DNA of 64,000 bases from an uncultured Spirochaetales bacterium (GCA_964353555.1 CAYGWM010000001.1:3659-67658), one strand, 5' to 3'. Positions 11,591-46,899 are shown, counted from the stretch's first letter. The notes: a model not told the origin generated them from the letters alone. Translations and numbers: made by a program.

Positions 11591-12056
11591 TCGTAATCGG
11601 CTCCGAGACCAGCGGTGGCTCGTGCGGCACGTGGTCCTTGTCGCCGAGCACAAGCTGGAGCGTGTGCTTGCCGGGCGTCAGTGCGGCGTTGGTCTCGGTC
11701 TGACCGCCGCCGAAATGAAGGTGCTTGTCGTCCTTCGGGAGCGGCACATCGAGGGCCGGCAGCTCGGAGTCGATGATCAGGTGGTGGTGACCGGTGTTCG
11801 GCGTCGCGACGCCCGCCGGCGCGACGCCCATGCCGATGAGTCCGAAGCGCACCGTCACCGGACTCGAAACCGTTTCGCCGTTTGCGGGCGAGATGAGGTA
11901 AAGCTTCGCGTCGGCGGGACGCGGCGTGCGCACGATCGCGTTGGCGGCCGCGGCTCTTGGTGCGGCCTCCTCCGCGCGTGCAGCAGGCAGCGCGGCGAAC
12001 GCGACGAGCACGACGGCGAGCGCCGAGACCGAGACGAGGCGGACGTGAAGGCTCAT
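11577..12056 (-). CDS. secreted DUF4399-like protein
   Basis: C-terminal 159 aa of ORF 11577..12635. Signal peptide 'LVSVSALAVVLVAFAALPAARA', then the 'NTGHHHLIID' and 'HLHFGGGQTE' motifs I associate with DUF4399. ATG at 12056. Confidence 0.6.
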   Translation of the reverse strand: MSLHVRLVSVSALAVVLVAFAALPAARAEEAAPRAAAANAIVRTPRPADAKLYLISPANGETVSSPVTVRFGLIGMGVAPAGVATPNTGHHHLIIDSELPALDVPLPKDDKHLHFGGGQTETNAALTPGKHTLQLVLGDKDHVPHEPPLVSEPITITVK

Positions 12057-14022
12057 GGCATCTCCCTTCGATGACGACAGCGATCCTACGCGATCACCGG
12101 TCGTGCTGAAAGCACGACGCGGGAACGCCGTCGCGATCGCGGCCGCGCTGCTGCTGCTCTTTGCGACGCTCGTCGCGTTGCGGCTGCACGGATTCTCGCT
12201 GGCGGCCTGGCACGAGGTGATCGACGGCAGCGCACCCAGCGAGGTGCTTCTCGGCGAGCCGCGGATGATCCGCTCCGACGACTGGAAGGTGCATCTGCCG
12301 CTGCTACTCGCGCAGACCGCGCAGACGCCGCGCTTCCCGGTGGTGAATCCGAGCGTCGGTCTCGGACAGAGCATGCTGCTGCCGGTCGACGCACTGGTCG
12401 CGCATTGGGTTGCGCTGTTCCGCCCGACGATGTGGGGATTCCTGCTCGGGCCCGACACGGGGATCGCGTGGCTGTGGTGGAGTCGCGTGCTCGGGCTCTT
12501 CGGGGTCTGGTTCGCGGTGTTGGCGGTGGTGACGCGCGGGCGTTTCGCACCTGCGGCGACCGGTGCTGCGCTTCTCGCGTGCGCGCCGTTCTTCCAGTTC
12601 TGGGCGTTCAACAGCGCGCCGCAGGTGACCAGCATGGGCGCGGCGTTCCTCGCGACGGTCGCGCTTGCGCGCGCGAAAGAATGGCGCTCGATCGTCGCGG
12701 CTGCGCTCGCGCTCGCGCTGTCGGGCGCATGGTTCGCGCTGTCGATCTATCCGCCGTATCAGGTGACGCTCGGCTGGCTCTACGTCGCGCTAGTAACGGG
12801 CTGGCTGCTCGATGCACGAGACGAGTTGCCGCTGCGCAATCACGTTGCGCTGCGTGCGCTCGCGCTCGCTGCGGCCGGTGTCAGCGTCGTCGCCGTGGTC
12901 GCCGCGTTTGCGTCCGATGCGAGTGATGCGATCGCGCTGATGCGCGACACCGCGTACCCCGGCCGCCGGATGTCGACCGGTGCCGAGCGCAACCTCGCGG
13001 AGCTGTGGAACACCAACCTCGGCGCACCGCTGTGGGCCGAGAAGTGGGGCCCGCTCTTCAACATCTGCGAGGCCGCGTCGTTCTGGATGCTATCGCCAGT
13101 GCCGATCACGTTGTTGCTGTGGCGCCGCACGCGCGGCGAGCGCATCGATGCGCTGACGGCGACCATCGCTCTCTACGCAGTTGTGATGACGCTCTACGCG
13201 CTGATCGGAGTTCCAACGTTCCTCGCGCGCGTGACGGCGCTGGGTTTCGTGCCTGGCAGGCGGGCCGTGATCGGGATCGGCATCGCCGATGCGATTCTGC
13301 TGGTGCGTTTCGCCGCGTGCAGCGCTGCTGCGCGACGCGAAGAGCGCGGGCGCGTGTTGGCAATCGCGCTCGCGTGGTTCGCGGTGCTGGCGGGCTGCTC
13401 GTTTTGGCTCGCGCGCGAGCTGCCCGATGCGCGGCTTCCGGTGCTGCTCGCGTTCGCGTTCGGGAACGCCGTGCTCGCAGCGTTCGTGCTGTGGATGCCG
13501 CGCAGCGCACTATTGGCGCTCGTCGCGCTGTCAGCGATCAGCACGCTGTGGTTCAACCCGCTTGCGGTGGGCGGCGCCGCCTATCTGCGCGACAACGCGC
13601 TCGCCCAGAAGATCACCGAGATCGATCGCGCGGAAGGCGGCGACACCACCTGGGTTTCGTTCGGTCGCGACGACCTGCCGAACTTGTTCCGCGCGATCGG
13701 CGTGCGCGCGCTGAACGGCGTCCACCCGATCCCGCAGCTCGCGCTGTGGAAGCGCATCGACCCCGCCGGCCGCTTTCGCAACGTCTACAACCGCTACGCG
13801 CACATCGCATTTGCCGCCGTGTCGTCGGGCGAGCCGCGCTTCCAACTCCATTCGCAGGACTACGTGATCGTGCAGATCCGCCCGAACTCCGACGAGTTCC
13901 GCGCGCTCGGCGTCACCCACGTGCTCGTCCGCGACGACGCAGCCGCCGCCTTCGAGCGCCTGAGCGGCTTCGAGCCCCTCGCGACGATCGGCCCAAACCA
14001 CCTATACCACGTCCCGAAGTAG
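12055..14022 (+). CDS. large polytopic membrane protein (655 aa), candidate GT-C-like glycosyltransferase/polymerase
   Basis: More than 10 hydrophobic helices followed by a soluble roughly 170-aa C-terminal domain. Sits in a glycosylation neighbourhood. Family not recognised, and the start is uncertain because it overlaps the divergent gene's start codon. Confidence 0.6.
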   Translation: MASPFDDDSDPTRSPVVLKARRGNAVAIAAALLLLFATLVALRLHGFSLAAWHEVIDGSAPSEVLLGEPRMIRSDDWKVHLPLLLAQTAQTPRFPVVNPSVGLGQSMLLPVDALVAHWVALFRPTMWGFLLGPDTGIAWLWWSRVLGLFGVWFAVLAVVTRGRFAPAATGAALLACAPFFQFWAFNSAPQVTSMGAAFLATVALARAKEWRSIVAAALALALSGAWFALSIYPPYQVTLGWLYVALVTGWLLDARDELPLRNHVALRALALAAAGVSVVAVVAAFASDASDAIALMRDTAYPGRRMSTGAERNLAELWNTNLGAPLWAEKWGPLFNICEAASFWMLSPVPITLLLWRRTRGERIDALTATIALYAVVMTLYALIGVPTFLARVTALGFVPGRRAVIGIGIADAILLVRFAACSAAARREERGRVLAIALAWFAVLAGCSFWLARELPDARLPVLLAFAFGNAVLAAFVLWMPRSALLALVALSAISTLWFNPLAVGGAAYLRDNALAQKITEIDRAEGGDTTWVSFGRDDLPNLFRAIGVRALNGVHPIPQLALWKRIDPAGRFRNVYNRYAHIAFAAVSSGEPRFQLHSQDYVIVQIRPNSDEFRALGVTHVLVRDDAAAAFERLSGFEPLATIGPNHLYHVPK

Positions 14023-14040: not shown

Positions 14041-14152
14041 GAGAAAGGGGACGGTCCTGGGCGAGGACGGGCTGAGGACTGGAGGGACACACCTCGGCAA
14101 GTGTGTCCCTCCAGTCCTCAGCCAGGTCACTTCGAGGACCGTCCCCTTTCTC
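14041..14152. terminator. nested perfect inverted repeats (about 112 nt) between convergent genes; putative bidirectional terminator
   Basis: The inner stem 14074-14092 'gaggactggagggacacac' pairs perfectly with 14101-14119 (19 bp, 8-nt loop). It is extended by ggct/agcc. The outer stem 14041-14058 'gagaaaggggacggtcct' pairs perfectly with 14135-14152 (18 bp). No clear U-tract. Confidence 0.55.
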
Positions 14153-15047
14153 CTCCGATGCTGGCGAGGAAGTGCAGCTTGCGGAGAGCGGCGCGACCGC
14201 GCAGCGAGACGAGGTCGGTGGCGATTCGGGCGGCGAGGTGCAGGCGCACGATCGCTTTGCCTTCGGCGACGCGCGCGGCGTCGCGAAAGCCGCGTTCGCG
14301 CGCGCGCGCGGCGATCCAGTCCATCACTGCGACTTCTTCTTGGAAGCGCGAGAGATCTTCGGTCTGCACGGCGGTCGCGCTCTCGGCGTGACGCCGGTAG
14401 GCGTAGGCACGGCGCCGCGTGCCGGCGATCGACTCGCCGTCTAGCAGCAGGCGCGCGAGCATCTCGAGGTCTTGCGCCTGCTTCAGGCCGGCTTCGAAGC
14501 GGCGCGCGCCGAGACGCTCGCGCCGCCACGCGAGCGTTGGACACATCACGAAGTCGGCGCGCGCGAGTGCGCGCAGGCCCGATTCGCCTTCGATCTGCCA
14601 CGGTTCACCGCGCGGGACGAGGCGGCGCTTCACCGCGTCGGCGAGCGAAAAGCGCGGGCGGCCCTGCGCATCGATGATCTCCGCGTCGCAGCACAGCGCG
14701 ACCGCGCGCGGGTGGGCGTCGGCCAGCGCGAAGATCACGTCGCAGTAGTCCGGCAGCAGCCGGTCGTCGGCGTGCAGCAGCGTGACCCACTCGGTCGTGG
14801 CGAGGTCGAGGCCGCGGTTCCAGTTTCCGACGATCCCGAGCGTCGTCTGGTTGTCGTGGTACGTGATGCGCGCATCGCCGAAGCGAGCGACGAGATCTGC
14901 GACGCCGCCCGGCTCGCCGCGGTCGTCGAGCACGATGCAGCGCCACCTGATGACGCGCTGGTCTCGCACGCTCTCGATCGTTTCGCGCAGATAGCCGAGG
15001 CCGCGGTGGAACGGAATCGCGAAGGTGATGCGCGCGGCGGTGCTCAT
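14127..15047 (-). CDS. family-2 glycosyltransferase (soluble)
   Basis: C-terminal 306 aa of ORF 14127..15926: 'ITFAIPFHRGLGYLRETIESVRDQ', 'IVLDDRG' and 'LLHADDRLLPDY' (GT2 DxD region). ATG at 15047. Confidence 0.8.
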   Translation of the reverse strand: MSTAARITFAIPFHRGLGYLRETIESVRDQRVIRWRCIVLDDRGEPGGVADLVARFGDARITYHDNQTTLGIVGNWNRGLDLATTEWVTLLHADDRLLPDYCDVIFALADAHPRAVALCCDAEIIDAQGRPRFSLADAVKRRLVPRGEPWQIEGESGLRALARADFVMCPTLAWRRERLGARRFEAGLKQAQDLEMLARLLLDGESIAGTRRRAYAYRRHAESATAVQTEDLSRFQEEVAVMDWIAARARERGFRDAARVAEGKAIVRLHLAARIATDLVSLRGRAALRKLHFLASIGGERGRSSK

Positions 15048-15074: not shown

Positions 15075-15671
15075 GTGGAGCCGCCGCGCGATACCCGGGA
15101 AGCCGCCTACGCCGAGCGCCTCGAGCGCCTCGCGGGCGCGCGCTGGAAGCGCTGGTTCGACGTGCAGCGGCCCTATCGCTGGAACCTGCGGCGCCTCGCG
15201 CTCGGCCGCACACTGGAGATCGGCTGCGGAATCGGGCGCAATCTCGCCTCGCTCGCCCCCGCTGCCGTCGGAATCGACCACAACGCGCACGCGGTCGAGA
15301 TCGCGCGCGCGCGCGGCTTTCGCGCCTTCTTGCCCGATGCGTTTTGCGCGTCGGCCGACGCGGCGCTGCCCTTCGACGCGCTGCTGTTCGCGCACGTGCT
15401 CGAACACATGACGCGCGCCGATGCGGCCGCACTGGTAGCGCAGTGGCTCCGCCATCTGCGCCCGGGCGGAAAGGTACTGCTGATCACGCCGCAGGAGGCC
15501 GGTTTTCGCTCGGACCCGAGCCACGTCGAGTTCATGGACTTCGACGCGCTGCGCGCGCTTCTCGAGGATGTGGGATGCGAGACGCTGGGCGCGTACTCGT
15601 TCCCGTTCCCGCGACTCGCCGGCCGCGTGTTCCCGCACAACGAGTTCGTGGTGCTGGGGCGGCGCCGCTAG
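15075..15671 (+). CDS. class I SAM-dependent methyltransferase
   Basis: C-terminal 198 aa of ORF 14472..15671. Motif I 'LEIGCGIGRN', plus 'LLFAHVLEHM' and 'LRPGGKVLLITP'. GTG at 15075 is the first start that does not overlap the divergent GT2. Confidence 0.7.
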   Translation: MEPPRDTREAAYAERLERLAGARWKRWFDVQRPYRWNLRRLALGRTLEIGCGIGRNLASLAPAAVGIDHNAHAVEIARARGFRAFLPDAFCASADAALPFDALLFAHVLEHMTRADAAALVAQWLRHLRPGGKVLLITPQEAGFRSDPSHVEFMDFDALRALLEDVGCETLGAYSFPFPRLAGRVFPHNEFVVLGRRR

Positions 15672-17902
15672 AAACGCCGGCGCCGCCGCAGGGAGTCGGC
15701 GCCGCTCGCGACGGCCACAACCGCGAGCGTGCTCCAACTGATTGCCGTGAGCAGCAGATAGCTGGAGGGTTCGTATCTGAAGCGCACGTGGTTCACGCCC
15801 GCGTGCACGCGCACGGCCCGGAACAGGAAGTCGCCGCCTAAGACGGGAACCTCCGCGCCGTCCACCGTCGCACGCCACGAGCGCGCCCAGCGGTCGGTGA
15901 CGAGGATCCATCCCGCCCTCGGGCAATCCACGTCGATCGCGAGCTCTTCGGGCGTGTAGCGCTCGACGACCGCGGCGATCGGCTGCGCGGCGGGGAAGGT
16001 GGACGGATCGGGGAGTACGGCGTCTTCGGAAGTCGCGCCGAGCATGGTCTCACGGCGGTGTAATACGAGAGGAAGTGACTGGATCTGCTCCGCACGCGCG
16101 ACGAAGCGCCGCCAGGCCTCGTCGTTCAGCGGGATCTCGGGTGCTTCGCTCGCGAACCAGGTGCGCGGTCGCCCGCGCTCTTGCTGGAGAGCGGCCGACA
16201 GCAGTACCGGGATGTCGAGCCAGCGCTCGTGGAAGCTGTTGCGGAGCGAATCGTAGCCGCGAAACGTCGCGATCTTGAGGGCGACGTTCATGCCGCTCGG
16301 CTCGCCACCGAATTGCGTTTCGAGCATGCGCGTGAGCCCGTTCGGGGTGAGATCCAGGCTCGGCGAGCGTAGCCCCTCGAGGCCGCTCCACGCGAAGAGC
16401 AGTCCCCGGTGCGTGCTGTAGAGGGTGGGCGAGAGAGTGTGGGTCACGACTGCGTCGATCGACACCATAAAAAGTAGAGCGAGCGCAGCCAGCCCATGGC
16501 GCCGTCGTTCGAGCGCGGGGCCCACCAGCGGAAAAGCCGCGATGCCGAGCCAGACGCTCACGACGTGAAGGCGCGCCAAGCGGGCATTCGCGCCGGAATA
16601 CGAGGCTTCTCGCACGACCCAGGCAAATGCCGCGATCGCGACGAGTGCCGCTCCGGCCGAGACCACCGCGAAGCGTCGCCACGGCGCACGGTCGCCGTTC
16701 GCGAGCGCGCGCCACAGATCGGTCGTTCCGCACGCCGCGAGCACGACCACTGCGAACATCGTGTAGACGCGGAAGAGCGCCGCGTGGCGAAAGAAGCGCG
16801 AGGGCGGGAAGAGGTCGTAGAGCCAGCCGCGCAACGGAGTCGCGTCGCCGACGGCGAGCGCCGCAGAGAGTGCGGCGAGCGCGACGAGTCCGACGCGGAA
16901 ACGACTCCGTGTGCCGCTCGCGACTGCGAAGAGCGCGAGACACAGAACGGCCGCGCCGCAGTAGAGGCTGCACATCGTCACGTCCGTGCGCGGCCACAGT
17001 CGCGGGTTCGCGAGTTTCACCGCGAGTAGATGCGGACTCGCGAACGTCGCGAACGCCCCAGGGTCCAGCGCGTCCGATCCGATCGCGACCTCGCGCGTCT
17101 TCGGGCCGCTGGAGCCGCTGTAGCCGGTGGTCTCGTGCAGGATCGCCGTGTAGGCCGGCGCGAGAACGATCCCGCCGACGATCCCGAACGTCAGCGCGAT
17201 CGCTCCGGCACGCATCGGGGAGCTACCACGCCATCGCAGCGCCACCCAACTCGCTGCGAAGGCCGGATTCAAGATCGTCATCGCCGGATAGCCAGACAGC
17301 GCGGAGAGCCCCCAGAGCGCGCCCGCCTGCGCCGCCGGCAACAGCCATCGCTCCTCTCGCGCGGCGACGTCGAGTCGCAGCAGGATCAGCGGAAGATAGC
17401 TGAACGAGATCAGGATCGGCACGTGCTGCGCCTGTCCCACGTAGAGTCCGCAGTAGAGCCAGCCGATCGCCGGAACGAGGGCGCCCCACGGCGGAGCGCC
17501 GAGTCGCGCTGCGAGCGCGAGGATGCCGAGTCCGCCCAGCAGCCAGTGCGAGAGCCAGAGAATCGTGAAGCCGCGTGCCGATCCGCCGGTCCACGCGCCG
17601 AGGGCAACCGACACCGGCGAGAAGGTGCCCGACTGCGGATCTGCGAAGGAGGGCGAGCCTGCCTGCGTCCACGGATTCCAGAAGAGCAAGCGACCGGCTC
17701 GCGCGTGATCGGCCAACAGGATCTGGTTCGGCGCATGCAAGTCACGCGCGTCCCACGCCGGCACCCCGGCGCCCGCGACGAGACGATTCTCGATTGCAAA
17801 GAACAACGCGCAGAGCCACAGAACCGCGAGCAGCCACGCGCCGCGGCGCGTCCGACGGTTGGTTGCTCCGTTCGCCTCGCCTTGCACAGATCCAGAATGC
17901 AC
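15668..17902 (-). CDS. YfhO-family polytopic membrane protein (putative lipid-carrier-dependent glycosyltransferase)
   Basis: 744 aa with many TM helices. The C-terminal beta-rich domain ends in a last TM ('WRATVDGAEVPVLGGDFLFRAVRVHAGVNHVRFRYEPSSYLLLTAISW'), the architecture I associate with YfhO. GTG start lies 3 nt after the upstream GT2 stop. Confidence 0.7.
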   Translation of the reverse strand: MHSGSVQGEANGATNRRTRRGAWLLAVLWLCALFFAIENRLVAGAGVPAWDARDLHAPNQILLADHARAGRLLFWNPWTQAGSPSFADPQSGTFSPVSVALGAWTGGSARGFTILWLSHWLLGGLGILALAARLGAPPWGALVPAIGWLYCGLYVGQAQHVPILISFSYLPLILLRLDVAAREERWLLPAAQAGALWGLSALSGYPAMTILNPAFAASWVALRWRGSSPMRAGAIALTFGIVGGIVLAPAYTAILHETTGYSGSSGPKTREVAIGSDALDPGAFATFASPHLLAVKLANPRLWPRTDVTMCSLYCGAAVLCLALFAVASGTRSRFRVGLVALAALSAALAVGDATPLRGWLYDLFPPSRFFRHAALFRVYTMFAVVVLAACGTTDLWRALANGDRAPWRRFAVVSAGAALVAIAAFAWVVREASYSGANARLARLHVVSVWLGIAAFPLVGPALERRRHGLAALALLFMVSIDAVVTHTLSPTLYSTHRGLLFAWSGLEGLRSPSLDLTPNGLTRMLETQFGGEPSGMNVALKIATFRGYDSLRNSFHERWLDIPVLLSAALQQERGRPRTWFASEAPEIPLNDEAWRRFVARAEQIQSLPLVLHRRETMLGATSEDAVLPDPSTFPAAQPIAAVVERYTPEELAIDVDCPRAGWILVTDRWARSWRATVDGAEVPVLGGDFLFRAVRVHAGVNHVRFRYEPSSYLLLTAISWSTLAVVAVASGADSLRRRRRF

Positions 17903-17905
17903 TCG

Positions 17906-18865
<960 letters not shown>

Positions 18866-20416: not shown

Positions 20417-20426
20417 CAGGGCGACG

Positions 20427-23183: not shown

Positions 23184-23269
23184 TCATCCTCCGCGCCGAT
23201 CCGGGTCGAGCGTCGGTCGAGATTCGAGGCTCGCGCCGGCTGCGTCAACCCCGCTACGCTGGGAATGCG

Positions 23270-24283: not shown

Positions 24284-24285
24284 TC

Positions 24286-33122: not shown

Positions 33123-33156
33123 CGGCGTTCGCAGCTTCATCGTACGCGGAGACGAG

Positions 33157-33774: not shown

Positions 33775-33841
33775 CACTCACCGGCGCGGACGAAGTTGCG
33801 CTTTCCCCTCTGCTCGGATTCGAGTGGCAGCAGGCCCGCTT

Positions 33842-38353: not shown

Positions 38354-38363
38354 GCGGTGCCAG

Positions 38364-39311
38364 TTGGACACCGAGGCGCGGATCTTCGTCGCGGGCGGCG
38401 GTGCGCTGGTCGGCGACGCGCTGCTGCGGCGCCTGCGCGACGCCGGCTTCGTGAATCTTCTTGGCGTTGGCGACACCGAACCGGATCTGCGCGACGCCGA
38501 AGCCGTCGATGAGTTCTTCGCGAGCGAACGCCCCGAGTACGTGTTCCTGCTCGGTGGGCGCTCCGGCGGCATCGCGCGCAACCTGCGCGAACCCGCCGAG
38601 TTGATGCTCGACAACCTGCGCATCGAGACCGCGCTGATCCCAGCCGCGCACCGCCATGGCGTCCGCAAACTGCTCTATCTCGCCGCCGCCTGCATCTACC
38701 CGCGCGACTGCGAGCAGCCGATGCGGCCCGCGCAGCTCGGCAGCGGTCCGGTCGAGCCCAGCAGCGAGGCGTACGCGATGGCAAAATGGGCGGGTCTCGT
38801 GTTGTGCCGCGCCTACGCACGGCAGTACGGCGCGCGCTTCATCACCGCGATTCCGGCGAACCCATTTGGGCCGGGCGACGACACGCGCTCCGAAGATGCC
38901 CATGTCGTCGGCGCTCTGATCCGGCGGATGCACGAGGCGAAGCAGCGAGGCGACGCGGAAGTGATCGTGTGGGGCACCGGTCGCGCGCGCCGCGATTTCC
39001 TGTTCGCGCCCGATCTCGCCGACGCGCTGGTCTTCCTGATGCAGCGCTACGACGGCGAGCAACCGATCAACGTGTCGGGCGCATCGGATGTCGCGATCGG
39101 CGAGCTGGCTGAGTGCATCCAGAAGGTGGTCGGCTTCAGCGGCCGGCTGCGCTTCGACGCGAGCCGTCCCGACGGCGCGCCGCGCAAAACGCTCGACGGC
39201 GAGGCGCTCCACGCACTCGGCTGGTCGCCGCGTCACGCGCTCGAGGAAGCGCTCACTGCTACGGTTCGCTGGTTCGTCGAGTCCGAGTCGGGAGCGGCGA
39301 CGCATGGCTGA
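38364..39311 (+). CDS. GDP-L-fucose synthase-like NDP-4-keto-sugar epimerase/reductase
   Basis: 'IFVAGGGALVG', 'ACIYP', 'YAMAKWAG' (YxxxK), 'VWGTGRARRDFLF' and 'DASRPDGAPRKTLD'. TTG at 38364 is the first in-frame start after the kinase stop. Confidence 0.8.
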   Translation: MDTEARIFVAGGGALVGDALLRRLRDAGFVNLLGVGDTEPDLRDAEAVDEFFASERPEYVFLLGGRSGGIARNLREPAELMLDNLRIETALIPAAHRHGVRKLLYLAAACIYPRDCEQPMRPAQLGSGPVEPSSEAYAMAKWAGLVLCRAYARQYGARFITAIPANPFGPGDDTRSEDAHVVGALIRRMHEAKQRGDAEVIVWGTGRARRDFLFAPDLADALVFLMQRYDGEQPINVSGASDVAIGELAECIQKVVGFSGRLRFDASRPDGAPRKTLDGEALHALGWSPRHALEEALTATVRWFVESESGAATHG

Positions 39312-40254
39312 TCTCGATCGCATCTACCGCTCGCTGTTCCGGATCCGCCGCGTCGAGGAGGAGATCGCGCGCGTCTATCCGACCGACGTGATCAAGAGCC
39401 CGGTGCACCTTTCGATCGGTCAGGAATCCGTCTCGGTCGGACTCTGCGAAGCATTGCGACCGGATGACGCCGCGTTCGGCACCTACCGCAGCCATGCGCT
39501 CTATCTCGCGAAGGGCGGCGACCTGCGCGCGATGATCGCGGAGCTGTACGGCAAGGCGACCGGCTGTGCGGGTGGCAAGGGCGGCTCGATGCACATGATC
39601 GACGTCGCGGCCGGCGTGTTCGGTTCTTCCGCAGTGGTGGGAACGACGATCCCGCACGCGGTCGGCTACGCGTACGCGGTGAAGCTGCGCCGCGAGTCGC
39701 GCGTGGTGGCGTGCGTCTTCGGCGACGGCGCGGTCGACGAGGGCGTCTTCTACGAGAGCCTGAACTTCGCCGCATTGAAGCGCCTCCCGGTGATCTTCGT
39801 GTGCGAGAACAACAGCTACGCGATCCATACCCACCAACGGCTGCGGCAGCGCGTGGCGGACGTCTGCGCGCGCGTGACCGCGCTCGGCATCCCCGCGGAG
39901 CGCATCGACGACGGTGACGTGCTGCGGATCGCCACGCGCGCGCGTGCGGCGAGCGATGCGCTGCGCGGCGGCGACGCCGGTCCCGTCTTCATCGAGTGCA
40001 TGACGTATCGATGGAAGGAACACGTCGGCCCGGGCGAGGACTGGAACCTCGGCTATCGCGGGCGCGCCGAAGCCGAGCCCTGGATCCGCGGGGACCAGGT
40101 CGCGCGGCTCGCGACGACGATCGACCAGGTCGCGCGCAAGCGAATCGAGAGCGAGGTGGAGGCTGAGATCGCCGACGCCTTCGCGTTTGCCGAGGGCTCG
40201 CCGTTCCCGGATCCGACCGCGCTGCACACCCAGGTGTTCCGGGAGTCGCCGTGA
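39304..40254 (+). CDS. ThDP-dependent 2-oxoacid dehydrogenase E1 component, alpha subunit-like
   Basis: 'IKSPVHLSIGQE', 'YRSHA', 'GKGGSMH' and the ThDP motif 'GDGAVDEGVFYESLNFAALKRLPVIFVCENNSYA'. The ATG overlaps the upstream gene by 8 nt. Confidence 0.85.
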   Translation: MADLDRIYRSLFRIRRVEEEIARVYPTDVIKSPVHLSIGQESVSVGLCEALRPDDAAFGTYRSHALYLAKGGDLRAMIAELYGKATGCAGGKGGSMHMIDVAAGVFGSSAVVGTTIPHAVGYAYAVKLRRESRVVACVFGDGAVDEGVFYESLNFAALKRLPVIFVCENNSYAIHTHQRLRQRVADVCARVTALGIPAERIDDGDVLRIATRARAASDALRGGDAGPVFIECMTYRWKEHVGPGEDWNLGYRGRAEAEPWIRGDQVARLATTIDQVARKRIESEVEAEIADAFAFAEGSPFPDPTALHTQVFRESP

Positions 40255-41300
40255 GCGAGCGCGAGCAGAGCTACGTCGACGCGCTGCGCGAGGCCGCGTT
40301 CCAGGAGATGGAGCGCGATCCGTCGGTCGTCTGCTTCGGCCTCGATGTGGACGATCCGAAGGCGATCCAGGGCACTACGCGCGGGCTCGTCGATAAATTC
40401 GGCCCGGAGCGCGTGTTCGGCACGCCGCTCGCCGAAGACGCGATGACCGGCGTTGCGATCGGCATGGCGCTCGCCGGCCTGCGCCCGATCCACGTGCACA
40501 TCCGGATGGATTTCTTGCTGCTGGCGATGAACCAGCTGATCAACATCGCGGCGAAGAGCCATTACATGTATGGCGGTCACGTCCACGTGCCGATCGTCGT
40601 GCGCTCGATGATCGGCAAGAGCTGGGGGCAAGGTGCCCAGCATTCGCAGGGACTCTATTCGTTCTTCATGCACGTGCCGGGCATCAAGGTGGCGGCGCCC
40701 ACCAATCCCCACGACGCGAAGGGCTGTCTCATTGCAGCGATTCGCGACGACAACCCGGTGATGCTCGTCGAACACCGGCTGCTGTATCCACACGAGGGGC
40801 CCGTGCCGCAGGCGCTCTACGAAGTGCGGCCCGGGCGCGCCCGCGTCGCAGCGCCGGGCAGCGACGTCACGTTGGTGGGCATCTCGCACATGTTGGTGGA
40901 GTGCCTGCAAGCGCGCACGTATCTCGCCGAGAAGGGCGTTTCAGCCGAGGTGATCGACCCGATCTGGCTGGCGCCGCTCGACATCGACACGATCGTGGCG
41001 TCGGTTGCGAAGACCGGCCGGCTGGTCGCGGTGGACAATGGCTGGACGACTTGCGGCGCCTCGGCGGAGATCGTTGCCCGCGTGGTCGAGCGTTTGCAGG
41101 GCACGCGCGACATTCGCGTGCACCGGATGGGCTTCGCGCCCACCACCTGCCCGCCGACGCCGGGCCTCGAGAAGCTCTTCTACGCCGATGCGCGCACGAT
41201 TGCGGCCGCTGCCAACGATCTGGTCGAAGGTCGCAGCACGGGTTGGCTTCCTGCCGAGCGTCCGAGCTCCGGTGAGATCACGTTCCGGGGACCGTTCTGA
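40251..41300 (+). CDS. E1 component beta subunit-like (transketolase pyrimidine-binding and C-terminal domains)
   Basis: 'RVFGTPLAEDAMTGVAIGMALAGLRP', 'QHSQ' and 'APTNPHDAKGCL'. GTGA overlap with the alpha subunit. Confidence 0.85.
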   Translation: MSEREQSYVDALREAAFQEMERDPSVVCFGLDVDDPKAIQGTTRGLVDKFGPERVFGTPLAEDAMTGVAIGMALAGLRPIHVHIRMDFLLLAMNQLINIAAKSHYMYGGHVHVPIVVRSMIGKSWGQGAQHSQGLYSFFMHVPGIKVAAPTNPHDAKGCLIAAIRDDNPVMLVEHRLLYPHEGPVPQALYEVRPGRARVAAPGSDVTLVGISHMLVECLQARTYLAEKGVSAEVIDPIWLAPLDIDTIVASVAKTGRLVAVDNGWTTCGASAEIVARVVERLQGTRDIRVHRMGFAPTTCPPTPGLEKLFYADARTIAAAANDLVEGRSTGWLPAERPSSGEITFRGPF

Positions 41301-42478
41301 TGTCCTGGCCGCTGATGCGCAACAACATCTCACGTGAAGATTTGCAGGCGGTGATCCGGTTCCTGTCGGCCGACGATCCGATCCTCACGCAGTCGAAACA
41401 GGTGGAACTCTTCGAGCAGGAATGGTCGGAGTGGCTGGGCGTACAGCACTCGGTATTTGTGAACTCGGGTTCGTCGGCGAATCTGATCACGATGGCGGCG
41501 CTGCGCCACCGCTACGGCCCGGGCGAGGTGATCGTACCGACGCTCACCTGGGTCTCCGACATCACCGCGGTGCTGCATGCGGGTCTGACGCCGGTGTTCG
41601 TCGACATCGATCCGCGCACGCTCGGGATGGACAACGACGCGGTGATCGAGAAGCTGTCGCCGCGCACGCGCGCGGTCTTCCTGACGCACATCCTCGGCTA
41701 CAACGCGCTCGGCGACCGGCTGCTCGATACGCTGCGCGAGCGCCGCATTCCGCTGATCGAGGACGTCTGCGAGTCGCACGGTGCGACCTTCGCGGGCCGC
41801 AAGCTCGGCACCTTCGGACTCGCGTCGAATTTCTCGTTCTATTACGCGCATCACATGAGCACGATCGAAGGCGGCATGGTTTCGACCGACGACGCCGAGC
41901 TGTTTGCCATGCTCCGCATGTTGCGCGCCCACGGACTCGTGCGCGAAGCCGGCGATGATGCGGTGAAGAGCCGCTACGCCGAGGCGCACCCGGATCTCAC
42001 GCCTGACTTCATTTTTGCGCTGCCCGGCTTCAACGTGCGCTCGACCGAGATCAACGCGGTAATGGGTCGCTCGCAGCTGCGCCGTCTCGACGCGAACAAC
42101 GAACGCCGTCGCGCGAACCTCGCGGTGTTCCTGCGCCATCTCGATCCGAACAAGTACTTCACCGACTTCGCCACCGAGGGAAGCTGCAACTACGCCTTCA
42201 CGCTGGTGCTGCGCGATCCGGACGACGCGCTTCGCGATCGCGTGATGACCGCGCTCCGCGAGCGCGGCATCGAGTTTCGGCGCGGCACCTCGGGCGGCGG
42301 CAATCAGCTCCGCCAGCCCTACCTCCGAGGGATCGTCGCTGCGGAAGATCTCGGCCGCTTTCCGCGCGTCGATCACGTCCATTTCTACGGCTTCTACATC
42401 GGCAACTACCCCGATCTCGAGCCCGAACGGATCGCCCGCCTCTGCGATATGTTGAACGCAATCGACAGTGGGAAGTAG
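41300..42478 (+). CDS. DegT/DnrJ/EryC1-fold PMP-dependent NDP-4-keto-6-deoxysugar 3-dehydratase (ColD / E1 DdhC type)
   Basis: DegT-family fold ('NSGSSANL', 'IEDVCESHGA'). At the Schiff-base position the sequence reads 'FSFYYAHHMSTIEGGM', with His instead of Lys. This is the signature of ColD and CDP-hexulose 3-dehydrase E1. Confidence 0.75.
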   Translation: MSWPLMRNNISREDLQAVIRFLSADDPILTQSKQVELFEQEWSEWLGVQHSVFVNSGSSANLITMAALRHRYGPGEVIVPTLTWVSDITAVLHAGLTPVFVDIDPRTLGMDNDAVIEKLSPRTRAVFLTHILGYNALGDRLLDTLRERRIPLIEDVCESHGATFAGRKLGTFGLASNFSFYYAHHMSTIEGGMVSTDDAELFAMLRMLRAHGLVREAGDDAVKSRYAEAHPDLTPDFIFALPGFNVRSTEINAVMGRSQLRRLDANNERRRANLAVFLRHLDPNKYFTDFATEGSCNYAFTLVLRDPDDALRDRVMTALRERGIEFRRGTSGGGNQLRQPYLRGIVAAEDLGRFPRVDHVHFYGFYIGNYPDLEPERIARLCDMLNAIDSGK

Positions 42479-42483
42479 GCATC

Positions 42484-43989
42484 ATGGCGACCGACATCGA
42501 TCTGGTCCTCGTGAACCCGGGCGGTCGCGCCCGCATCTATCAGTCGCTTGCGACGGAGGTCACCGCCGTCGAACCGCCCGTATGGGCGGGACTGATGGCC
42601 AGTTTCGTCCGCGGGCGTGGTCACTCGGTTGCGATCATCGACTCGAACGCCGAAGAGCTGGGACCGGAAGAAGCAGCCGCACGCGCGATCGAGATGCGGC
42701 CGCGGATGGTCGCGGTGCCCGTCTACGGTCACCAGCCGTCCGCCTCGACGCAGGTGATGCCGGGTGCGAGCGCGGTCGTGACCGCGCTGAAGGACCTCGC
42801 GCCCGAGCTGCCCGTATTGATGGTCGGCGGTCACGTCGCATCGCTGCCGCAGCGCACGCTCGCCGAGGAGCGCTGCGACTTCGTCGCCGACGGCGAGGGC
42901 CTGCACACGATGGTGGAGCTGCTCGAAGCGCTCGCCGCGAGCAGCACACCCGAATTCTCGCGCGTGCGCGGCCTCTGGACACGTGATGGCGACGGCGCGA
43001 AATGCACTGCGACCGCGCCGCTGGTGATGAACGTGGACGTCGAGATGCCGGGCGTCGCGTGGGACCTGCTGCCGATGCAGAAGTACCGCGCGCACAACTG
43101 GCACTGCTTCGGCGAAGCGAGCCGCGAGCCCTACGTCGCGCTCTACACCACGCTCGGGTGTCCGTACCACTGCTCGTTCTGTTGCATCCAGGCGCCGTTC
43201 AAGAGCGGCGAGTCGCTGGCCGGCTACAAGGACAGCGTCAACTCGTACCGCTTCTGGAGTCCCGCGCGCGTGCTCGAGGATCTGACGCTGCTGGTCGAAC
43301 GCTACGGCGTTCGCAACATCAAAGTTGCCGACGAGATGTTCGTGCTGAACGCGCGCCACGTGAACGCGATCTGCGACGGCATCGTCGCGCGCGGCCTGCC
43401 GCTGAACATCTGGGCGTATGCACGCGTCGACACCGTGAAGGATTCGATGGTCGACAAGCTGGCGCGCGCCGGCGTACGTTGGCTCGCCTTCGGCATCGAG
43501 GCCGCCAGCGAACGCGTGCGCGCCGACGTCGACAAGGGCTTCGACGACGAACTGGTCTACCGCACGCTCGAGAAGGTGCGCGGCGCCGGCATCCGCGTGA
43601 TCGGCAACTACATCTTCGGCCTGCCGGAAGACGATCACGACACGATGCAAGAGACGCTCGACCTCGCGATCGAGCTCAACTGTGAGTTCGCAAACTTCTA
43701 CTGCGCGATGGCGTACCCCGGATCGCCGCTCTACGACCGCGCGATCGCCGAGGGCTGGCCGCTGCCCGAGACCTGGGGCGGCTACTCGCAGCACAGTGTC
43801 GACTCGCTGCCGCTGCCCACGCGCCACCTCTCGGCCGGCGAGGTGCTGCGCTTCCGCGATGAAGCCTTCCAGGCCTACTTCAAGAGCCCGCGGTACCTGT
43901 CGATGGTCGAAGCGAGGTTCGGCGCTGCGACGCTGCGCGAGATCGCCGCGATGTCCGCGCACCGGCTCGAGCGGCGGTTCGCCGCGTGA
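42484..43989 (+). CDS. B12-binding-domain radical SAM enzyme (class B)
   Basis: N-terminal Rossmann-like cobalamin-binding domain ('DLVLVNPG...', 'VGGHVASLP'), then 'TTLGCPYHCSFCC' (CxxxCxxC). 501 aa. Confidence 0.85.
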   Translation: MATDIDLVLVNPGGRARIYQSLATEVTAVEPPVWAGLMASFVRGRGHSVAIIDSNAEELGPEEAAARAIEMRPRMVAVPVYGHQPSASTQVMPGASAVVTALKDLAPELPVLMVGGHVASLPQRTLAEERCDFVADGEGLHTMVELLEALAASSTPEFSRVRGLWTRDGDGAKCTATAPLVMNVDVEMPGVAWDLLPMQKYRAHNWHCFGEASREPYVALYTTLGCPYHCSFCCIQAPFKSGESLAGYKDSVNSYRFWSPARVLEDLTLLVERYGVRNIKVADEMFVLNARHVNAICDGIVARGLPLNIWAYARVDTVKDSMVDKLARAGVRWLAFGIEAASERVRADVDKGFDDELVYRTLEKVRGAGIRVIGNYIFGLPEDDHDTMQETLDLAIELNCEFANFYCAMAYPGSPLYDRAIAEGWPLPETWGGYSQHSVDSLPLPTRHLSAGEVLRFRDEAFQAYFKSPRYLSMVEARFGAATLREIAAMSAHRLERRFAA

Positions 43990-44936
43990 GCGCGCCGGTG
44001 CTTTCGGTCGTGCTGTCGTTCCGCAACGAGGCGGACGTGATCCCGGAGTTGATCTCCCGGCTCGCAAAGTCGCTCGAAGGCGCCGGCATCGACTACGAGC
44101 TGATCTTCGTGAACGACGCCTCTACGGATGGCTCGCTCGCGCTACTCGAAGCACTGCGCGCTCGCGATCCGCGCGTGAAGATCCTGAACATGTCGCGTCG
44201 CTTCGGTGTGGCTCCCTGCGTGATGGCGGGTATGCAATTCGCGCGGGGCGACGCCGTCGTCTACATGGACACGGACCTGCAGGATCCGCCCGAGCTGATC
44301 CCGACGCTGGTTGCGCGCTGGCGCGAAGGTGCCGACGTCGTCTACACGGTGCGCACTTCGCGACAGGGCGAGTCGGTATGGAAGATGCGCGTGACGCGCG
44401 CCGCGTACCGCGCGATCCAGCTCGCGTCGGACATCGAACTGCCGATCGAGGCAGGCGACTTCAAGTTGCTTTCGCGACGCGTCGTCGACCAACTGATCGC
44501 GCTCGGCGAGCAGGATCTCTACGTGCGCGGGCTCGTCACGTGGATGGGATTCCGGCAGGTGGCGGTGCCGTACGAACGCCAGCCGCGCGGCGCGGGTGAG
44601 GCGCACTTCCCGCTGTTGCGGAGCTGGGGGCCGATTTCTTCATTTGTTGCCGGCGTGACGTCGTTCTCGCATGCGCCATTGATTGCTTTTCTGCTGCTCG
44701 GCCTCGCCGGTGGCGCGCTCTCGATGCTCGCGCTCGCGCTGCTGCTGCTCGCTGGTGTCGTCGGCGCAGCGGCCTCGAGCATCGCGTGGCTCGTCGCATT
44801 CGGCGTGCTGCTGTGGAGTACGCTGGCGCTCGGGATCGGCGTCATCGGTCTCTATCTCGCACGCATCCATCGCGAGGTGCTCGGACGGCCGCGCTACATC
44901 GTGGAGAGCGCCATCGGCTTCGATGAGCCGAGCTGA
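43986..44936 (+). CDS. polyprenyl-phosphate glycosyltransferase (GT2, ArnC/GtrB-like; third copy)
   Basis: 'LSVVLSFRNE', 'IFVNDASTDGS', 'RRFGVAPC' and 'MDTDLQDPPE', then two C-terminal TM helices and 'GLYLARIHREVLGRPRYIV'. GTGA overlap with the rSAM gene. Confidence 0.85.
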   Translation: MSAPVLSVVLSFRNEADVIPELISRLAKSLEGAGIDYELIFVNDASTDGSLALLEALRARDPRVKILNMSRRFGVAPCVMAGMQFARGDAVVYMDTDLQDPPELIPTLVARWREGADVVYTVRTSRQGESVWKMRVTRAAYRAIQLASDIELPIEAGDFKLLSRRVVDQLIALGEQDLYVRGLVTWMGFRQVAVPYERQPRGAGEAHFPLLRSWGPISSFVAGVTSFSHAPLIAFLLLGLAGGALSMLALALLLLAGVVGAAASSIAWLVAFGVLLWSTLALGIGVIGLYLARIHREVLGRPRYIVESAIGFDEPS

Positions 44937-46899
44937 GCAGCTGTCGTCGTCCGCAGTGTCGCCCTTCAGCGCCGGCCGTCCGCTCGCCGGCGTAGTGGCG
45001 ATCAGCGCCGCGGCGGGGTTCGTGGTCGGTCTGCTGTTCCCTGCCTGGCACGTCGCGCTCGAACCCGCGCAGGTGATCGCTGGGATCGTCGAGTACCCGA
45101 GCGGCAATCCATTCGGACTCTACGAAACACGGCTATGGACCGGCTGGCACCAGGTCCTCGCGCCGCTGCTCGCGGCTGGTGTTCCGGAGCGCGTGCTGAC
45201 CTTCGTGCTCTCTGGTCTCGTCGCCGCGATTTCGTTCACAGCACTCACCGCATTTGCATACGGACTCGGCGCCGACGCCGAGCTTGCGATCGCGACACCG
45301 TTCGTGCTCGGCGTGCTGAACCCCACCTCGTGGCAGTTTTGGTACCCGATCATTTTGCTCGGCCATGGCCACACCTACGGCATGGCGGGACTTGCGTGGC
45401 TGGTGCTTGCCTGCGGTGTGCTCGCGACGGAACGCTGGGCGGTGGCAGCGTTTCTGATCGGCATCGCGCCCGCAGTACACGCGTCGCTCGGCGCGTGGCT
45501 CGGTCTGCTCGCGCTGGTTTGCGGACTCGCGCACTGGCGCGAGGTGCGCCCCCATGTCGCCGCGATCGTGCGCGGTGGCACGCTCGGCGCTTCGATCGCC
45601 GCGCTGAGTCTCGCGACACATCTGCTCCGCCAGCCCGCCGGGCTGGCGGTCGATCCCGCCGTCGCGAGCCGCTACCTCGATGGCTTCGTCCAGCTCTGGG
45701 ATGCGCACCGCATCCCCGGCAACGTGACGGGTTTCGGCGGGCTCGTGGTGTGCATCGGCCTGATCGTCGCCGTCGCAATGCTGCGATGTGCACGACGGCA
45801 GATCGGCGCCGCCACTGCACTGGTGCTGAACGTCTATGTCAGTTGCGGCGTGCTAGGCATCGCGCTGGCGCTCGTGCAGCGATTCGTGCCACCCGAGCAG
45901 ATCCCGAACACGCTGCTGATCGCGATGCCGGCGAGGCTGCTCAATCTGCCGGCGCTCGCGTTCGTGCCGCTGCTGATCGGCGTGCTCGGGCGCTACCGGA
46001 GCGATGTGGTGGCGCGCGCGCTGCTGGTCGTTTTGGTGACGGTCGCCGCGCTGCGTCCACTCTTCGCGGATCTCGCACTCTACGGCTTGCCGATCGTTGG
46101 TGTGGCGACGGCCCTTGTGATCGACCGCCACGCCGATCGTCCCGGCGCAATCCGGATCGCGGTGATCGGCATGCTGGCGTTTGCCGGGCTGCGCGCGACG
46201 CAGTCCACGGTTCCCCTCTCGTGGCGGGATGCGGCGTCGTTCGCTGCGATGCTGACCGCGGCGGCGCTGGGGGTCGGCGCTTCGCTGCAGCGAACGCGCG
46301 CGACCAACCGCGATGGATCGCTAGCGCGACTCGCGCGTCGCCTCGCCGAGCAGCCGTTGCCGCTGCAGCTTCCGCTGCGCATCGCACTCGTCGCGACGGT
46401 ACTGATCACGGTCAACGCGGCGATTCGCGGCTTCGAGTACCGCTTGTCACGGCTGCACGATCGCAGCAACGATCGAGCGCTGGCCGCCGCGTCGCGCGGC
46501 GACGGTCTGTTGCTGGTGGCGCCGCGCATTTCGACGCCGCAGCTGATCACGCGTCGCCCGGTGGTGCTCGATCCGGGCGCGCTCGACATGCTGCCCTACG
46601 CGCTCGCGGGTGGACCCGAGTTGGAGCGCATGCTGCGCATCGGCTACGGAGTCGAATTCTTCGCGCCGCCGCCGAAGGCGCTGCACACCGCGCTGTTGCC
46701 CAGCGAAGTCGTGCAGCCGATCTGGGAGAAGCGCAGCGGCGCGGAATGGCGCGAAGTTGCGACGAGTCTCGGCGTCACCGACGTGCTGGTTCCGGCGACG
46801 TGGAAGCTATCCGGCGTGCCGGAAGTCGAGCGCAGCAGCGCGTACGTGCTCTATCACCTCGCGACGCCCGCTGGCGCAGGTCCGGCCGGCACCCGATAG
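44923..46899 (+). CDS. polytopic membrane protein (658 aa), candidate GT-C-type transferase for the operon's sugar
   Basis: C-terminal 658 aa of ORF 44683..46899. About 12 or more TM helices, then a soluble C-terminal domain. The ATG at 44923 overlaps the GT2 by 14 nt. Family not recognised. Confidence 0.6.
   Translation: MSRAEQLSSSAVSPFSAGRPLAGVVAISAAAGFVVGLLFPAWHVALEPAQVIAGIVEYPSGNPFGLYETRLWTGWHQVLAPLLAAGVPERVLTFVLSGLVAAISFTALTAFAYGLGADAELAIATPFVLGVLNPTSWQFWYPIILLGHGHTYGMAGLAWLVLACGVLATERWAVAAFLIGIAPAVHASLGAWLGLLALVCGLAHWREVRPHVAAIVRGGTLGASIAALSLATHLLRQPAGLAVDPAVASRYLDGFVQLWDAHRIPGNVTGFGGLVVCIGLIVAVAMLRCARRQIGAATALVLNVYVSCGVLGIALALVQRFVPPEQIPNTLLIAMPARLLNLPALAFVPLLIGVLGRYRSDVVARALLVVLVTVAALRPLFADLALYGLPIVGVATALVIDRHADRPGAIRIAVIGMLAFAGLRATQSTVPLSWRDAASFAAMLTAAALGVGASLQRTRATNRDGSLARLARRLAEQPLPLQLPLRIALVATVLITVNAAIRGFEYRLSRLHDRSNDRALAAASRGDGLLLVAPRISTPQLITRRPVVLDPGALDMLPYALAGGPELERMLRIGYGVEFFAPPPKALHTALLPSEVVQPIWEKRSGAEWREVATSLGVTDVLVPATWKLSGVPEVERSSAYVLYHLATPAGAGPAGTR

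Follow-up and report, generated by a model that had tools for sequence, protein, structure and literature searches.

Three predicted lipid-carrier glycosylation gene sets in a 64-kb region of an uncultured Spirochaetales bacterium

The Gtr systems (GtrA/GtrB/Gtr*), which glucosylate the O-antigen in Shigella and Salmonella, and the Gram-positive CsbB/GtcA/YfhO, Csd, and Gts systems have a membrane-anchored GtrB-type family 2 glycosyltransferase (GT2) encoded beside a large polytopic transferase (PMC8035078, PMC11127046). Several pairs may occur in one genome, the transferases are poorly conserved or have no Pfam domain, and the flippase is possibly shared and located elsewhere in the genome. 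A comparable region is described here from a 64,000-nucleotide stretch of DNA of an uncultured Spirochaetales bacterium (GCA_964353555.1 CAYGWM010000001.1:3659-67658), hereafter the window. It contains three gene sets, each of which is predicted from its sequence to form a multi-component ("three-component") transmembrane glycosylation system for the cell envelope. The probability of this reading is put at about 70%. It draws on domain identities, the predicted fold of the membrane protein memB, synteny with related genomes, and invariant acids in membrane-protein loops, all of which are observed in this work.

In contrast to the Gtr and CsbB-type systems, the host is an uncultured diderm, no GtrA-family gene lies in the window, the YfhO-like proteins score below the Pfam threshold, and two of the modules include methyltransferases. 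A diderm is not expected to offer teichoic acids as acceptors. Lipopolysaccharide (LPS), exopolysaccharide (EPS), or proteins are possible acceptors, and these, like the catalytic activities, the sugars, and the flippase, are predictions. The general mechanism is textbook material, and the scheme is already established and holds no surprise for a specialist (PMC8035078; PMC11127046).

The genes are named after modules A, B, and C and the fourth grouping of an initial annotation of the window, as GT2-A/memA/MT-A, GT2-B/memB/MT-B, GT2-C/memC, and GT2-D/memD, with MT for the methyltransferases. In the proposed mechanism, the membrane-anchored GT2 would load polyprenyl (undecaprenyl) phosphate with a single sugar, taken from a nucleotide sugar, at the cytoplasmic face. 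A flippase encoded outside the window would turn the lipid-linked sugar to the periplasmic face. The adjacent polytopic protein, of GT-C type, would then pass the sugar to an envelope acceptor by an inverting mechanism, with a conserved loop carboxylate as the base. System B would consist of the GtrB-like GT2-B, the YfhO-like memB, and a methyltransferase. In system A/D, GT2-A, which resembles dolichyl-phosphate mannose synthase (DPMS), would make the donor, and memD would be the core transferase. The protein memA would be an accessory second transferase in a swappable slot, and GT2-D and the methyltransferase would also be accessory. The methyltransferases of modules A and B probably O-methylate the sugar. 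In system C, the first eight enzymes of a ten-gene operon would build a nucleotide sugar, GT2-C would load it on the lipid, and memC would transfer it.

All ten open reading frames (ORFs) named in the initial annotation are present at the coordinates given there and have coding-type third-position GC of 0.77-0.86, in a window of ~68% GC in which true genes are marked by third-position GC of 0.77-0.92. The reported spacing is also correct: GT2-A and memA are 3 nt apart, GT2-C and memC overlap by 14 nt, and a methyltransferase is convergent with memA. The core idea of several parallel systems, each with a GT2 and a polytopic transferase, stands on GT2 homology, the memB model, and pairings kept across genomes. 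Distinct sugars for the parallel systems, as first suggested, are likely given the different sugar-pathway contexts of the three sets. The term "paralogous modules" applies to GT2-B and GT2-C and remotely to memA and memB, but not to GT2-A, GT2-D, memC, or memD. Judged by sequence comparison, the region is a group of three gene sets that are mostly analogous rather than paralogous modules.

Pfam PF00535 confirms the four GT2 calls, which are GT2-D at 14127-15047(-) (E 9e-18), GT2-A at 17906-18865(-) (6e-21), GT2-B at 29810-30835(+), and GT2-C at 43986-44936(+), whose start overlaps the stop of a radical S-adenosylmethionine (SAM) gene. C-terminal hydrophobic helices are present in GT2-A (~240-298), GT2-B (two helices), and GT2-C. 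GT2-D has no transmembrane helix and is soluble, as was claimed. GT2-B and GT2-C are predicted by homology to be GtrB/ArnC-type polyprenyl-phosphate glycosyltransferases. GT2-B matches the solved polyprenyl-phosphate glucosyltransferase GtrB (sll0501, 5EKP) over its full length (residues 22-324, E 1.5e-81) and ArnC with E 3e-45. GT2-C matches GtrB (E 3.6e-60) and ArnC (E 3e-39), both over the full length with the transmembrane hairpin included. The best NCBIfam match of both is PgfS (2e-72 for GT2-B). Their shared motifs were reported correctly, namely MDADMQDPPE in GT2-B and MDTDLQDPPE in GT2-C, and the C-terminal tails GEYLSR...RPLYIV and GLYLAR...RPRYIV.

GT2-A is a membrane-anchored enzyme of DPMS/AglJ/PpgS-like type and a predicted polyprenyl-phosphate sugar synthase. 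In the PDB it matches solely the archaeal dolichyl-phosphate mannose synthase 5MLZ (E 2.2e-9). AglJ (5e-12) and PpgS (3e-11) are the best NCBIfam matches, both far below cutoff, and the protein is 80-96% identical in related loci. This arrangement of a DPMS/PpgS/AglJ-like enzyme followed by a polytopic candidate transferase is similar to that of the mycobacterial PpgS (Rv3631, polyprenyl-phospho-GalNAc synthase) with its GT-C partner, and to that of archaeal and eukaryotic DPMS with PMT/ALG. It differs in that the similarity is weak (E 2e-9 to 5e-12, far below NCBIfam cutoffs) and the partner families are YfhO-like and DUF7657. GT2-D has only weak, generic glycosyltransferase matches in the PDB. 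Homology to the solved GtrB and ArnC for GT2-B and GT2-C, and to DPMS for GT2-A, makes these three credible polyprenyl-phosphate monosaccharide synthases.

Full-length identity between GT2-B and GT2-C is 40% (E 8e-63). GT2-A aligns with them over only ~80-100 amino acids (aa) (E ~1e-5), and GT2-D has no significant match to either. GT2-C is nearer to its orthologue from Pirellulales (56%) than to GT2-B, so any duplication is ancient or the modules were separately acquired.

The memA protein (15668-17902(-)) is a divergent YfhO-family polytopic protein and predicted GT-C transferase, accessory in the slot downstream of GT2-A. Its counterpart memB (30882-33122(+); public gene calls begin at 30903) is a divergent YfhO-like polytopic protein with a predicted GT-C fold. 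BLAST finds 30% identity over a 115-aa C-terminal block. The reported WRATVDG motif is present (memA 676, memB 658), as are RFRYEP and RLRFEP. The memA and memB family profiles align with 99.1% probability in hhalign (E 4e-19, 365 columns), and YfhO is matched in 34 of 36 aligned members of the memA family (best E 1.6e-10). The two proteins are remote homologues and are best described, from these profiles, as a distant YfhO-like branch. The label "YfhO-like" in the initial annotation holds at the family level for memA and memB, which individually miss the Pfam cutoff; memC has no detectable relation to YfhO.

The memA family, of at least 147 members, occurs in Thermoanaerobaculia and Pyrinomonadaceae, both Acidobacteriota, in a metagenome-assembled genome (MAG) of Thermoguttaceae (Planctomycetota), and in soil metagenomes. 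The divergent YfhO branch is widespread in Acidobacteriota, Gemmatimonadota, and Myxococcota. YfhO partners were noted earlier as mostly known from Firmicutes; the YfhO-like family is widespread in diderm phyla and not peculiar to this genome. A literature search on YfhO in diderm phyla gave nothing usable and found no characterised diderm member of the YfhO-like family. In two distant genomes (L038 and L040), a memA-family gene is directly beside a GSDH-type (soluble glucose/sorbosone dehydrogenase-like) protein, with an APH-family kinase nearby (at L038 8253-9992 and L040 4153-5973, and L038 2194-3816 and L040 8537-9406). A DSBA-domain protein is encoded ~3 kb from the memA-family gene in L040.

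Structures were predicted with AlphaFold 2 (AF2) for two proteins, memB (17-sequence alignment) and memC (47 sequences). The memB model has a mean predicted local distance difference test score (pLDDT) of 77 and a predicted TM-score (pTM) of 0.81, and comprises a polytopic core, a C-terminal beta-sandwich, and a final transmembrane helix. Its top Foldseek matches are the ArnT structures 5F15/5EZM (E 7.7e-4, probability 1.00, TMt 0.49), followed by EmbB, STT3, AglB, Pmt, and AftD, all of which are GT-C enzymes. The structural comparison with GT-C enzymes proposed in the initial annotation is thus borne out by memB; the memC model resembles GT-C enzymes weakly. Module B is completed by MT-B (33157-33774(+)), a class I SAM methyltransferase (Methyltransf_25/23/11/12/31, E 4e-13 to 7e-10). 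A 46%-identical memB homologue (L004) likewise adjoins a GT2 and a methyltransferase.

Module B and a convergent amidohydrolase gene (29810-35542, 5.9 kb) have a GC content of 0.64-0.65, compared with ~0.68-0.70 nearby. In a Myxococcota MAG (L008 3-1614), a CofH-like radical SAM gene is directly before gene 1 of operon C. Since module B and the amidohydrolase gene lie between these two in the window and not in L008, they look like an insertion. In L010, a closer relative than L008, the amidohydrolase gene likewise adjoins operon C.

The polytopic memD (12055-14022(+)) contains DUF7657 (residues 30-419, 1.3e-89) and a C-terminal DUF7654 (residues 511-653, 2.5e-27), and is a candidate extracytoplasmic glycosyltransferase. 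MT-A (15075-15671(+)) is a class I SAM methyltransferase, accessory in a variable slot (Methyltransf_23/11/12/25, E 5e-13 to 5e-11); Pfam upholds this call and that of MT-B. The initial annotation treated memD and its neighbours as an independent fourth grouping. Related loci indicate that they are part of the module A locus, and that module A and this grouping are one conserved locus of memD, GT2-D, and GT2-A. These three genes recur across 19 metagenome loci wherever the contig reaches far enough, and are found together in 13 related loci. GT2-D adjoins memD in every related locus seen. In a 66%-identical relative, a methyltransferase is missing and the genes run GT2-A, memA, GT2-D, and then memD, which is convergent.

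Four arrangements of the slot that separates GT2-D from GT2-A occur among related loci. It is empty in L021, L024, and L037, and contains a methyltransferase alone in L025, L027, L029, and L032. In L019, L020, and L034, it contains a methyltransferase and a second DUF7657/7654 paralogue (37-43% identical). In the window and in L009, it contains memA, with and without the methyltransferase, respectively. MT-A is therefore absent from L009, L021, L024, and L037. On this comparison, it is the DUF7657/7654 protein, and not its YfhO-like neighbour, that is kept as membrane partner across A/D loci. The alternation of DUF7657 and YfhO-like proteins directly downstream of a donor-making GT2 is the best available argument that they do the same kind of job. 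The slot can be likened to serotype-specific or serotype-converting Gtr* genes. Nothing usable on DUF7657/DUF7654 was found in the literature.

A flavin monooxygenase (FMO/Baeyer-Villiger type, PtlE-like E 2e-57) and a short-chain dehydrogenase/reductase (SDR) follow GT2-A on the same strand (18950-21173(-)), and both recur near the A/D locus in relatives L009 and L024. They might be part of the A/D system, in sugar or lipid oxidation, or unrelated. On the other side of the locus, a 159-aa protein with a clear signal peptide, MSLHVRLVSVSALAVVLVAFAALPAARA, is encoded at 11577-12056(-). It is divergent from memD, and the two start codons overlap in CATG. In L009, the gene at the equivalent position is called DUF4399. 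The gene at 6871-9954(+), which encodes a DinG-like helicase with a fused RNase T exonuclease domain, is syntenic with the A/D locus in relatives.

The gene neighbourhoods could also be read in another, distinctly unlikely way, in which the YfhO-like and DUF7657 proteins build the backbone of or polymerise a larger polysaccharide (EPS or O-antigen), instead of adding single sugars to a completed polymer, and the neighbouring GT2s are ordinary Leloir enzymes. The loci of the memA-family genes of Thermoanaerobaculia (L038) and of L040 contain many GT2 and GT4 genes, and that of L038 also contains a polysaccharide deacetylase. A 32%-identical memB relative adjoins the heptose-pathway genes HldE and GmhA, and the A/D locus itself holds a soluble GT2 without lipid-carrier features. 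However, GT2-B and GT2-C are full-length GtrB/ArnC homologues with the transmembrane hairpin specific to polyprenyl-phosphate monosaccharide synthases, and GT2-A is DPMS-like with transmembrane helices. Genes for Wzx, Wzy, Wzz, ABC transporters, and initiating phosphoglycosyltransferases are absent beside the modules in the window. These features favour the transfer of single lipid-linked sugars.

The third set ends in memC (44923-46899(+)), a polytopic protein of an unnamed family that is predicted to transfer the operon C sugar. Scans of memC and 86 relatives against Pfam and NCBIfam gave no meaningful match. No link to PMT_2, ArnT-like, or other families of the GT-C clan emerged when the membrane proteins were scanned at a permissive threshold (E up to 10) or when these relatives were scanned. 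An exhaustive profile search places at least 1,543 clusters at 50% identity in the memC family, 759 of them at E 1e-30 or better. The public memC copies are all annotated as "hypothetical protein". In hhalign, the memC, memD, and YfhO-like family profiles match one another with probabilities of 4% or less. The four large proteins thus represent three sequence-unrelated families, and the idea that all four are distant paralogues was dropped on the same values.

Some genomes carry two memC-family genes. In MAG SOY_38_metabat_69 (L010/L016), they are 85% and 44% identical to that of the window, and in MAG Prado149 (L015/L017), 43% and 45%. The copies on L015 and L016 stand alone, with no GT2-C or sugar operon detected in the available flanks. 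A DsbA-family thiol-disulfide oxidoreductase is encoded convergently with memC in the window (46915-47643(-)). It stays beside memC homologues in L010, L011, and L017, where the 45%-identical copy is on a truncated contig. One divergent family member carries TPR repeats. TPR domains occur in some protein-glycosylating GT-C enzymes (TMTC/PMT_2 type), and this is a hint that some members of the memC family may have protein acceptors.

The GT-C_A class has a conserved N-terminal module of seven transmembrane helices followed by a variable module, and its first luminal loop consists of two helices, the first of which bears the catalytic Asp or Glu (PMC13503287). The memC model (pLDDT 89.8, pTM 0.91) has its first transmembrane helix at 21-37 and loop helices at 46-52 and 63-70, with E47 in the first of these. 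E47 is invariant in 40 sequences at 26-44% identity, as are H186, H262, and R338. The two-helix first loop with E47, as modelled, is a GT-C_A hallmark, and the His and Arg residues are predicted to be suited to phosphate binding. The other proteins have comparable residues. An invariant D55 is just after the first transmembrane helix of memB, followed by helices 56-59 and 61-73 (low local pLDDT). In memA, an invariant D51 follows the first transmembrane helix, and memD has a near-invariant D57 and RSDDWK (R73 D75 D76 W77) in the loop after it. Conserved acidic residues of periplasmic loops, which the initial annotation expected, are found after the first transmembrane helix in memA, memB, memC, and, as near-invariant, memD. 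Lys/Arg density (positive-inside rule) places the N-termini inside and the acidic first loop outside the cytoplasm. The catalytic role of these acids would follow from the GT-C_A comparison.

An unlikely alternative for memC, and possibly memD, is that they are not glycosyltransferases. They would instead be a flippase or transporter, or a Wzy/ligase-like polymerase for polyprenyl-diphosphate glycans, which would also account for the lack of a separate flippase gene in the window. Neither sequence nor profile ties memC to a known glycosyltransferase family. Its best Foldseek matches, which are EmbA/B, ALG9, AglB, DPY19, STT3, and PglB, are weak (E 0.045-0.5, probability 0.6-0.98, TM-score ~0.3), and major facilitator superfamily (MFS) and other transporters appear lower in the list. 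However, all memC matches with a probability above 0.5 are GT-C enzymes, and the transporters reach 0.12 or less. The protein also has a soluble C-terminal domain in addition to the two-helix loop with its invariant Glu and the invariant His and Arg residues. Known flippases are small (GtrA, SMR) or of Wzx/MATE type, and not 650-aa proteins with a periplasmic domain (PMC11127046, PMC8035078). For memD, a DUF7657 paralogue takes the position of a YfhO-like GT-C candidate. The glycosyltransferase reading of memC and memD is preferred here.

GT2-C and memC are the last two of ten tightly packed genes at 35623-46899, termed operon C. Gene 1 (35623-36555(+)) encodes an SDR-type nucleoside diphosphate (NDP)-sugar epimerase/dehydratase (Pfam Epimerase 1.7e-30; NCBIfam GalE and dTDP-glucose 4,6-dehydratase below cutoff). 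Gene 2 (36552-37298(+)) encodes a sugar-1-phosphate nucleotidyl, probably guanylyl, transferase (NTP_transferase 1e-25; ManC-like 1.5e-45 and HddC 5e-38, below cutoffs). Gene 3 (37295-38353(+)) encodes a GHMP-family sugar kinase (GHMP_kinases_N and _C; HddA-like 4.7e-39 and fucokinase 1e-24, below cutoffs). The product of gene 4 (38364-39311(+); candidate starts at 38307, 38313, and 38364) is a GDP-fucose-synthase-like 3,5-epimerase/4-reductase (Fcl E 4.6e-104, 348 bits against a cutoff of 500). Genes 5 (39304-40254(+)) and 6 (40251-41300(+)) encode the subunits of a thiamine pyrophosphate (TPP)-dependent enzyme that resemble pyruvate dehydrogenase (PDH) E1 alpha (E1_dh 1e-58; PDH E1 alpha 3e-84, below cutoff) and E1 beta (Transket_pyr, Transketolase_C; PDH E1 beta 7.5e-82). 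Gene 7 (41300-42478(+)) encodes a DegT-family sugar aminotransferase or dehydrase dependent on pyridoxal or pyridoxamine phosphate (PLP/PMP) (DegT_DnrJ_EryC1 4e-69; RfbH 8.5e-59, PseC 1.6e-51, ArnB 4.8e-45, all below cutoff). The product of gene 8 (42484-43989(+)) is a B12-binding radical SAM enzyme (B12-binding, Radical_SAM; HpnJ-like 1.8e-44, far below cutoff). A hopanoid (HpnJ) role for the latter was rejected, as the match scores 152 bits where the cutoff is 578, and the operon holds no further hopanoid-pathway gene.

The entire operon recurs in Myxococcota MAGs with a 49%-identical memC. It also recurs in a Pirellulales MAG (L018), in which the sugar enzymes are 42-61% identical and memC only 25%. 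Across syntenic loci, identities are 52-95% for gene 1 and 56-94% for GT2-C, and memC adjoins GT2-C whenever operon C is present. In L018 (4558-6340), the PDH-E1 alpha/beta pair is replaced by the N and C subunits of a split transketolase. This non-orthologous swap of TPP enzymes means that the transferred two-carbon unit may differ. As a pair is kept despite the swap, the pathway has a conserved need for a TPP enzyme of two subunits. Pairs of PDH-E1-like proteins are known to extend NDP-4-keto-deoxysugars by a two-carbon branch that comes from pyruvate (Plm8/9, AviB1/2; PMC4802897).

The enzymes of operon C predict a GDP-activated, C2-branched, aminated (or 3-deoxygenated), and possibly C-methylated sugar. 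The steps would include activation by the kinase and the guanylyltransferase, and SDR/Fcl-like oxidation, epimerisation, and reduction. In addition, the TPP-dependent enzyme would add the two-carbon branch, the DegT enzyme would aminate or deoxygenate the sugar, and the B12-radical-SAM enzyme would act in a further step. Matches to heptose-type kinases and guanylyltransferases are far below their cutoffs, and neither GmhA nor GmhB is encoded in the operon. A literature search on this enzyme combination gave nothing usable.

Two described pathways can be compared with operon C. The Arn pathway (ArnA, B, C, D, T, E, F), which places 4-amino-4-deoxy-L-arabinose (L-Ara4N) on lipid A, shares with operon C an SDR, a DegT-family enzyme, an ArnC-like GT2, and a terminal polytopic transferase. 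ArnT is also the best structural match of memB. In contrast, operon C activates its sugar by a GHMP kinase and a guanylyltransferase-like enzyme, has extra TPP-dependent and B12-radical-SAM steps, and lacks the ArnA formyltransferase and homologues of ArnD and ArnE/F. The memC protein has no sequence similarity to ArnT and weak fold similarity. The paulomycose (Plm8/Plm9) and eurekanate (AviB1/AviB2) pathways (PMC4802897) likewise have an E1-alpha/E1-beta pair among genes for an NDP-sugar dehydratase, epimerase, and aminotransferase, with no E2 or E3. Their sugars, however, go to secondary metabolites through soluble Leloir enzymes, whereas operon C is predicted to use a polyprenyl-phosphate route to the envelope. 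A further difference is the split transketolase that stands in place of the pair in Pirellulales.

The initial annotation saw no small GtrA-like flippase gene, and a scan for ORFs with transmembrane segments supports this. Besides the named proteins, transmembrane segments in the window occur in an NnrU-like protein, in a weak, partial match to MFS, and in an unannotated stretch with four such segments at 2830-3420, which lies inside the reading frame of a gamma-glutamyltranspeptidase. A conserved plus-strand "ORF" upstream of memD (11412-12074) was considered as a flippase and rejected. It looks conserved by tblastn but is an antisense shadow of the gene at 11577-12056(-). In B. subtilis and L. 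lactis, several GT-A/GT-C pairs occur per genome, their GT-C partners have no recognisable Pfam domain, and a shared flippase is encoded elsewhere (PMC8035078). Neither multiple pairs nor the missing linked flippase is therefore unusual. As an unlinked shared flippase is common in known systems, its absence from the window is compatible with a location elsewhere in the genome.

Several observations weigh against the proposed glycosylation systems. No gene for a flippase of GtrA, SMR, Wzx, or MATE type is present in the 64-kb window, and between 12 and 47 kb no ORF of at least 80 aa with three or more hydrophobic segments occurs beyond the named proteins. Against Pfam YfhO PF09586, memA scores 17.5 bits and memB 23.9 bits, below the cutoff of 28.5 bits, and both matches are confined to the last ~50 model positions (776-835 of 835). 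Searches of PDB sequences with the memB sequence, the memB-family profile, and the memC-family profile gave nothing meaningful. The identity of the operon C sugar is a guess, as all NCBIfam matches of the sugar-pathway enzymes are below curated cutoffs. In addition, memB and memC homologues without an adjacent GT2 exist (L005, L015, L016).

The last point would also fit pairings that have no functional meaning and are chance neighbours in a gene-dense genome, as would the unrelated metabolism between the modules (radical SAM, NIR_SIR, MoaA-like, and globin genes). This explanation is already disfavoured and is very improbable. Two of the three pairs have a start/stop overlap or 3-nt spacing. 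GT2-C and memC are adjacent from 94% to 25% memC identity in two phyla, a GT2 is kept with memB at 46% identity, and GT2-A, GT2-D, and memD stay together in related loci, as described above. The recurrence of each pairing in relatives down to 25-46% identity places the adjacency of GT2s and membrane proteins beyond chance and supports the reading as envelope glycosylation systems.

The block between modules A and B (23099-29705(+)) encodes a MoaA-like radical SAM protein, a bacterial globin, a nitrite/sulfite-reductase-like (NIR_SIR) protein, and two radical SAM proteins, one of them with a C-terminal region of CofH/MqnC type. As listed, the ORFs of these two radical SAM proteins share ~200 nt, so the true start of the second is probably further downstream. 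An OmpA/Pal-type protein (4820-5386(+)) is consistent with a diderm. A 1,488-aa Lhr helicase is encoded at 55573-60039(+), and an Lhr gene is also near memC in L008.

A GT-C-fold enzyme that has no sequence similarity to existing glycosyltransferase families was identified from its modelled structure and genetic neighbourhood, and it became the founder of the CAZy family GT136 (Kelly et al. 2024, PMC11127046). The memC protein and DUF7657 could be comparable cases. The GT136 pentofuranose systems differ in that their donor is made by a polyprenyl phosphoribose synthase that depends on phosphoribosyl pyrophosphate (PRPP), and a linked MATE protein flips it (PMC11127046), whereas a classical GT2 and no linked flippase are found here. 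A tentative proposal, with rather less than an even chance of being right, is that memC founds a large new GT-C family. The ten-gene cassette of Myxococcota and Planctomycetota would use polyprenyl phosphate to supply the envelope with a GDP-derived sugar not described before, which would be C2-branched, aminated, and possibly C-methylated. Another GT-C-type family so far overlooked would be DUF7657/DUF7654, whose members would exchange with YfhO-like proteins at a slot that diversifies surface glycans. To our knowledge, a polyprenyl-phosphate route is not known for branched-chain sugars.

Two parts merit attention. One is the memC family together with the ten-gene cassette that accompanies it across phyla, and the other is that DUF7657 and YfhO-like proteins are interchangeable. 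A new GT-C family could come from either. If the reading is true, an uncultured diderm would decorate its envelope by at least three lipid-carrier routes. The comparison also provides functional hypotheses for three unannotated membrane-protein families, which are the divergent YfhO branch, DUF7657/7654, and the memC family. The operon C cassette is small and testable, and would be a starting point for discovering a new envelope sugar and possibly, as was the case with GT136, a new CAZy family of GT-C enzymes.

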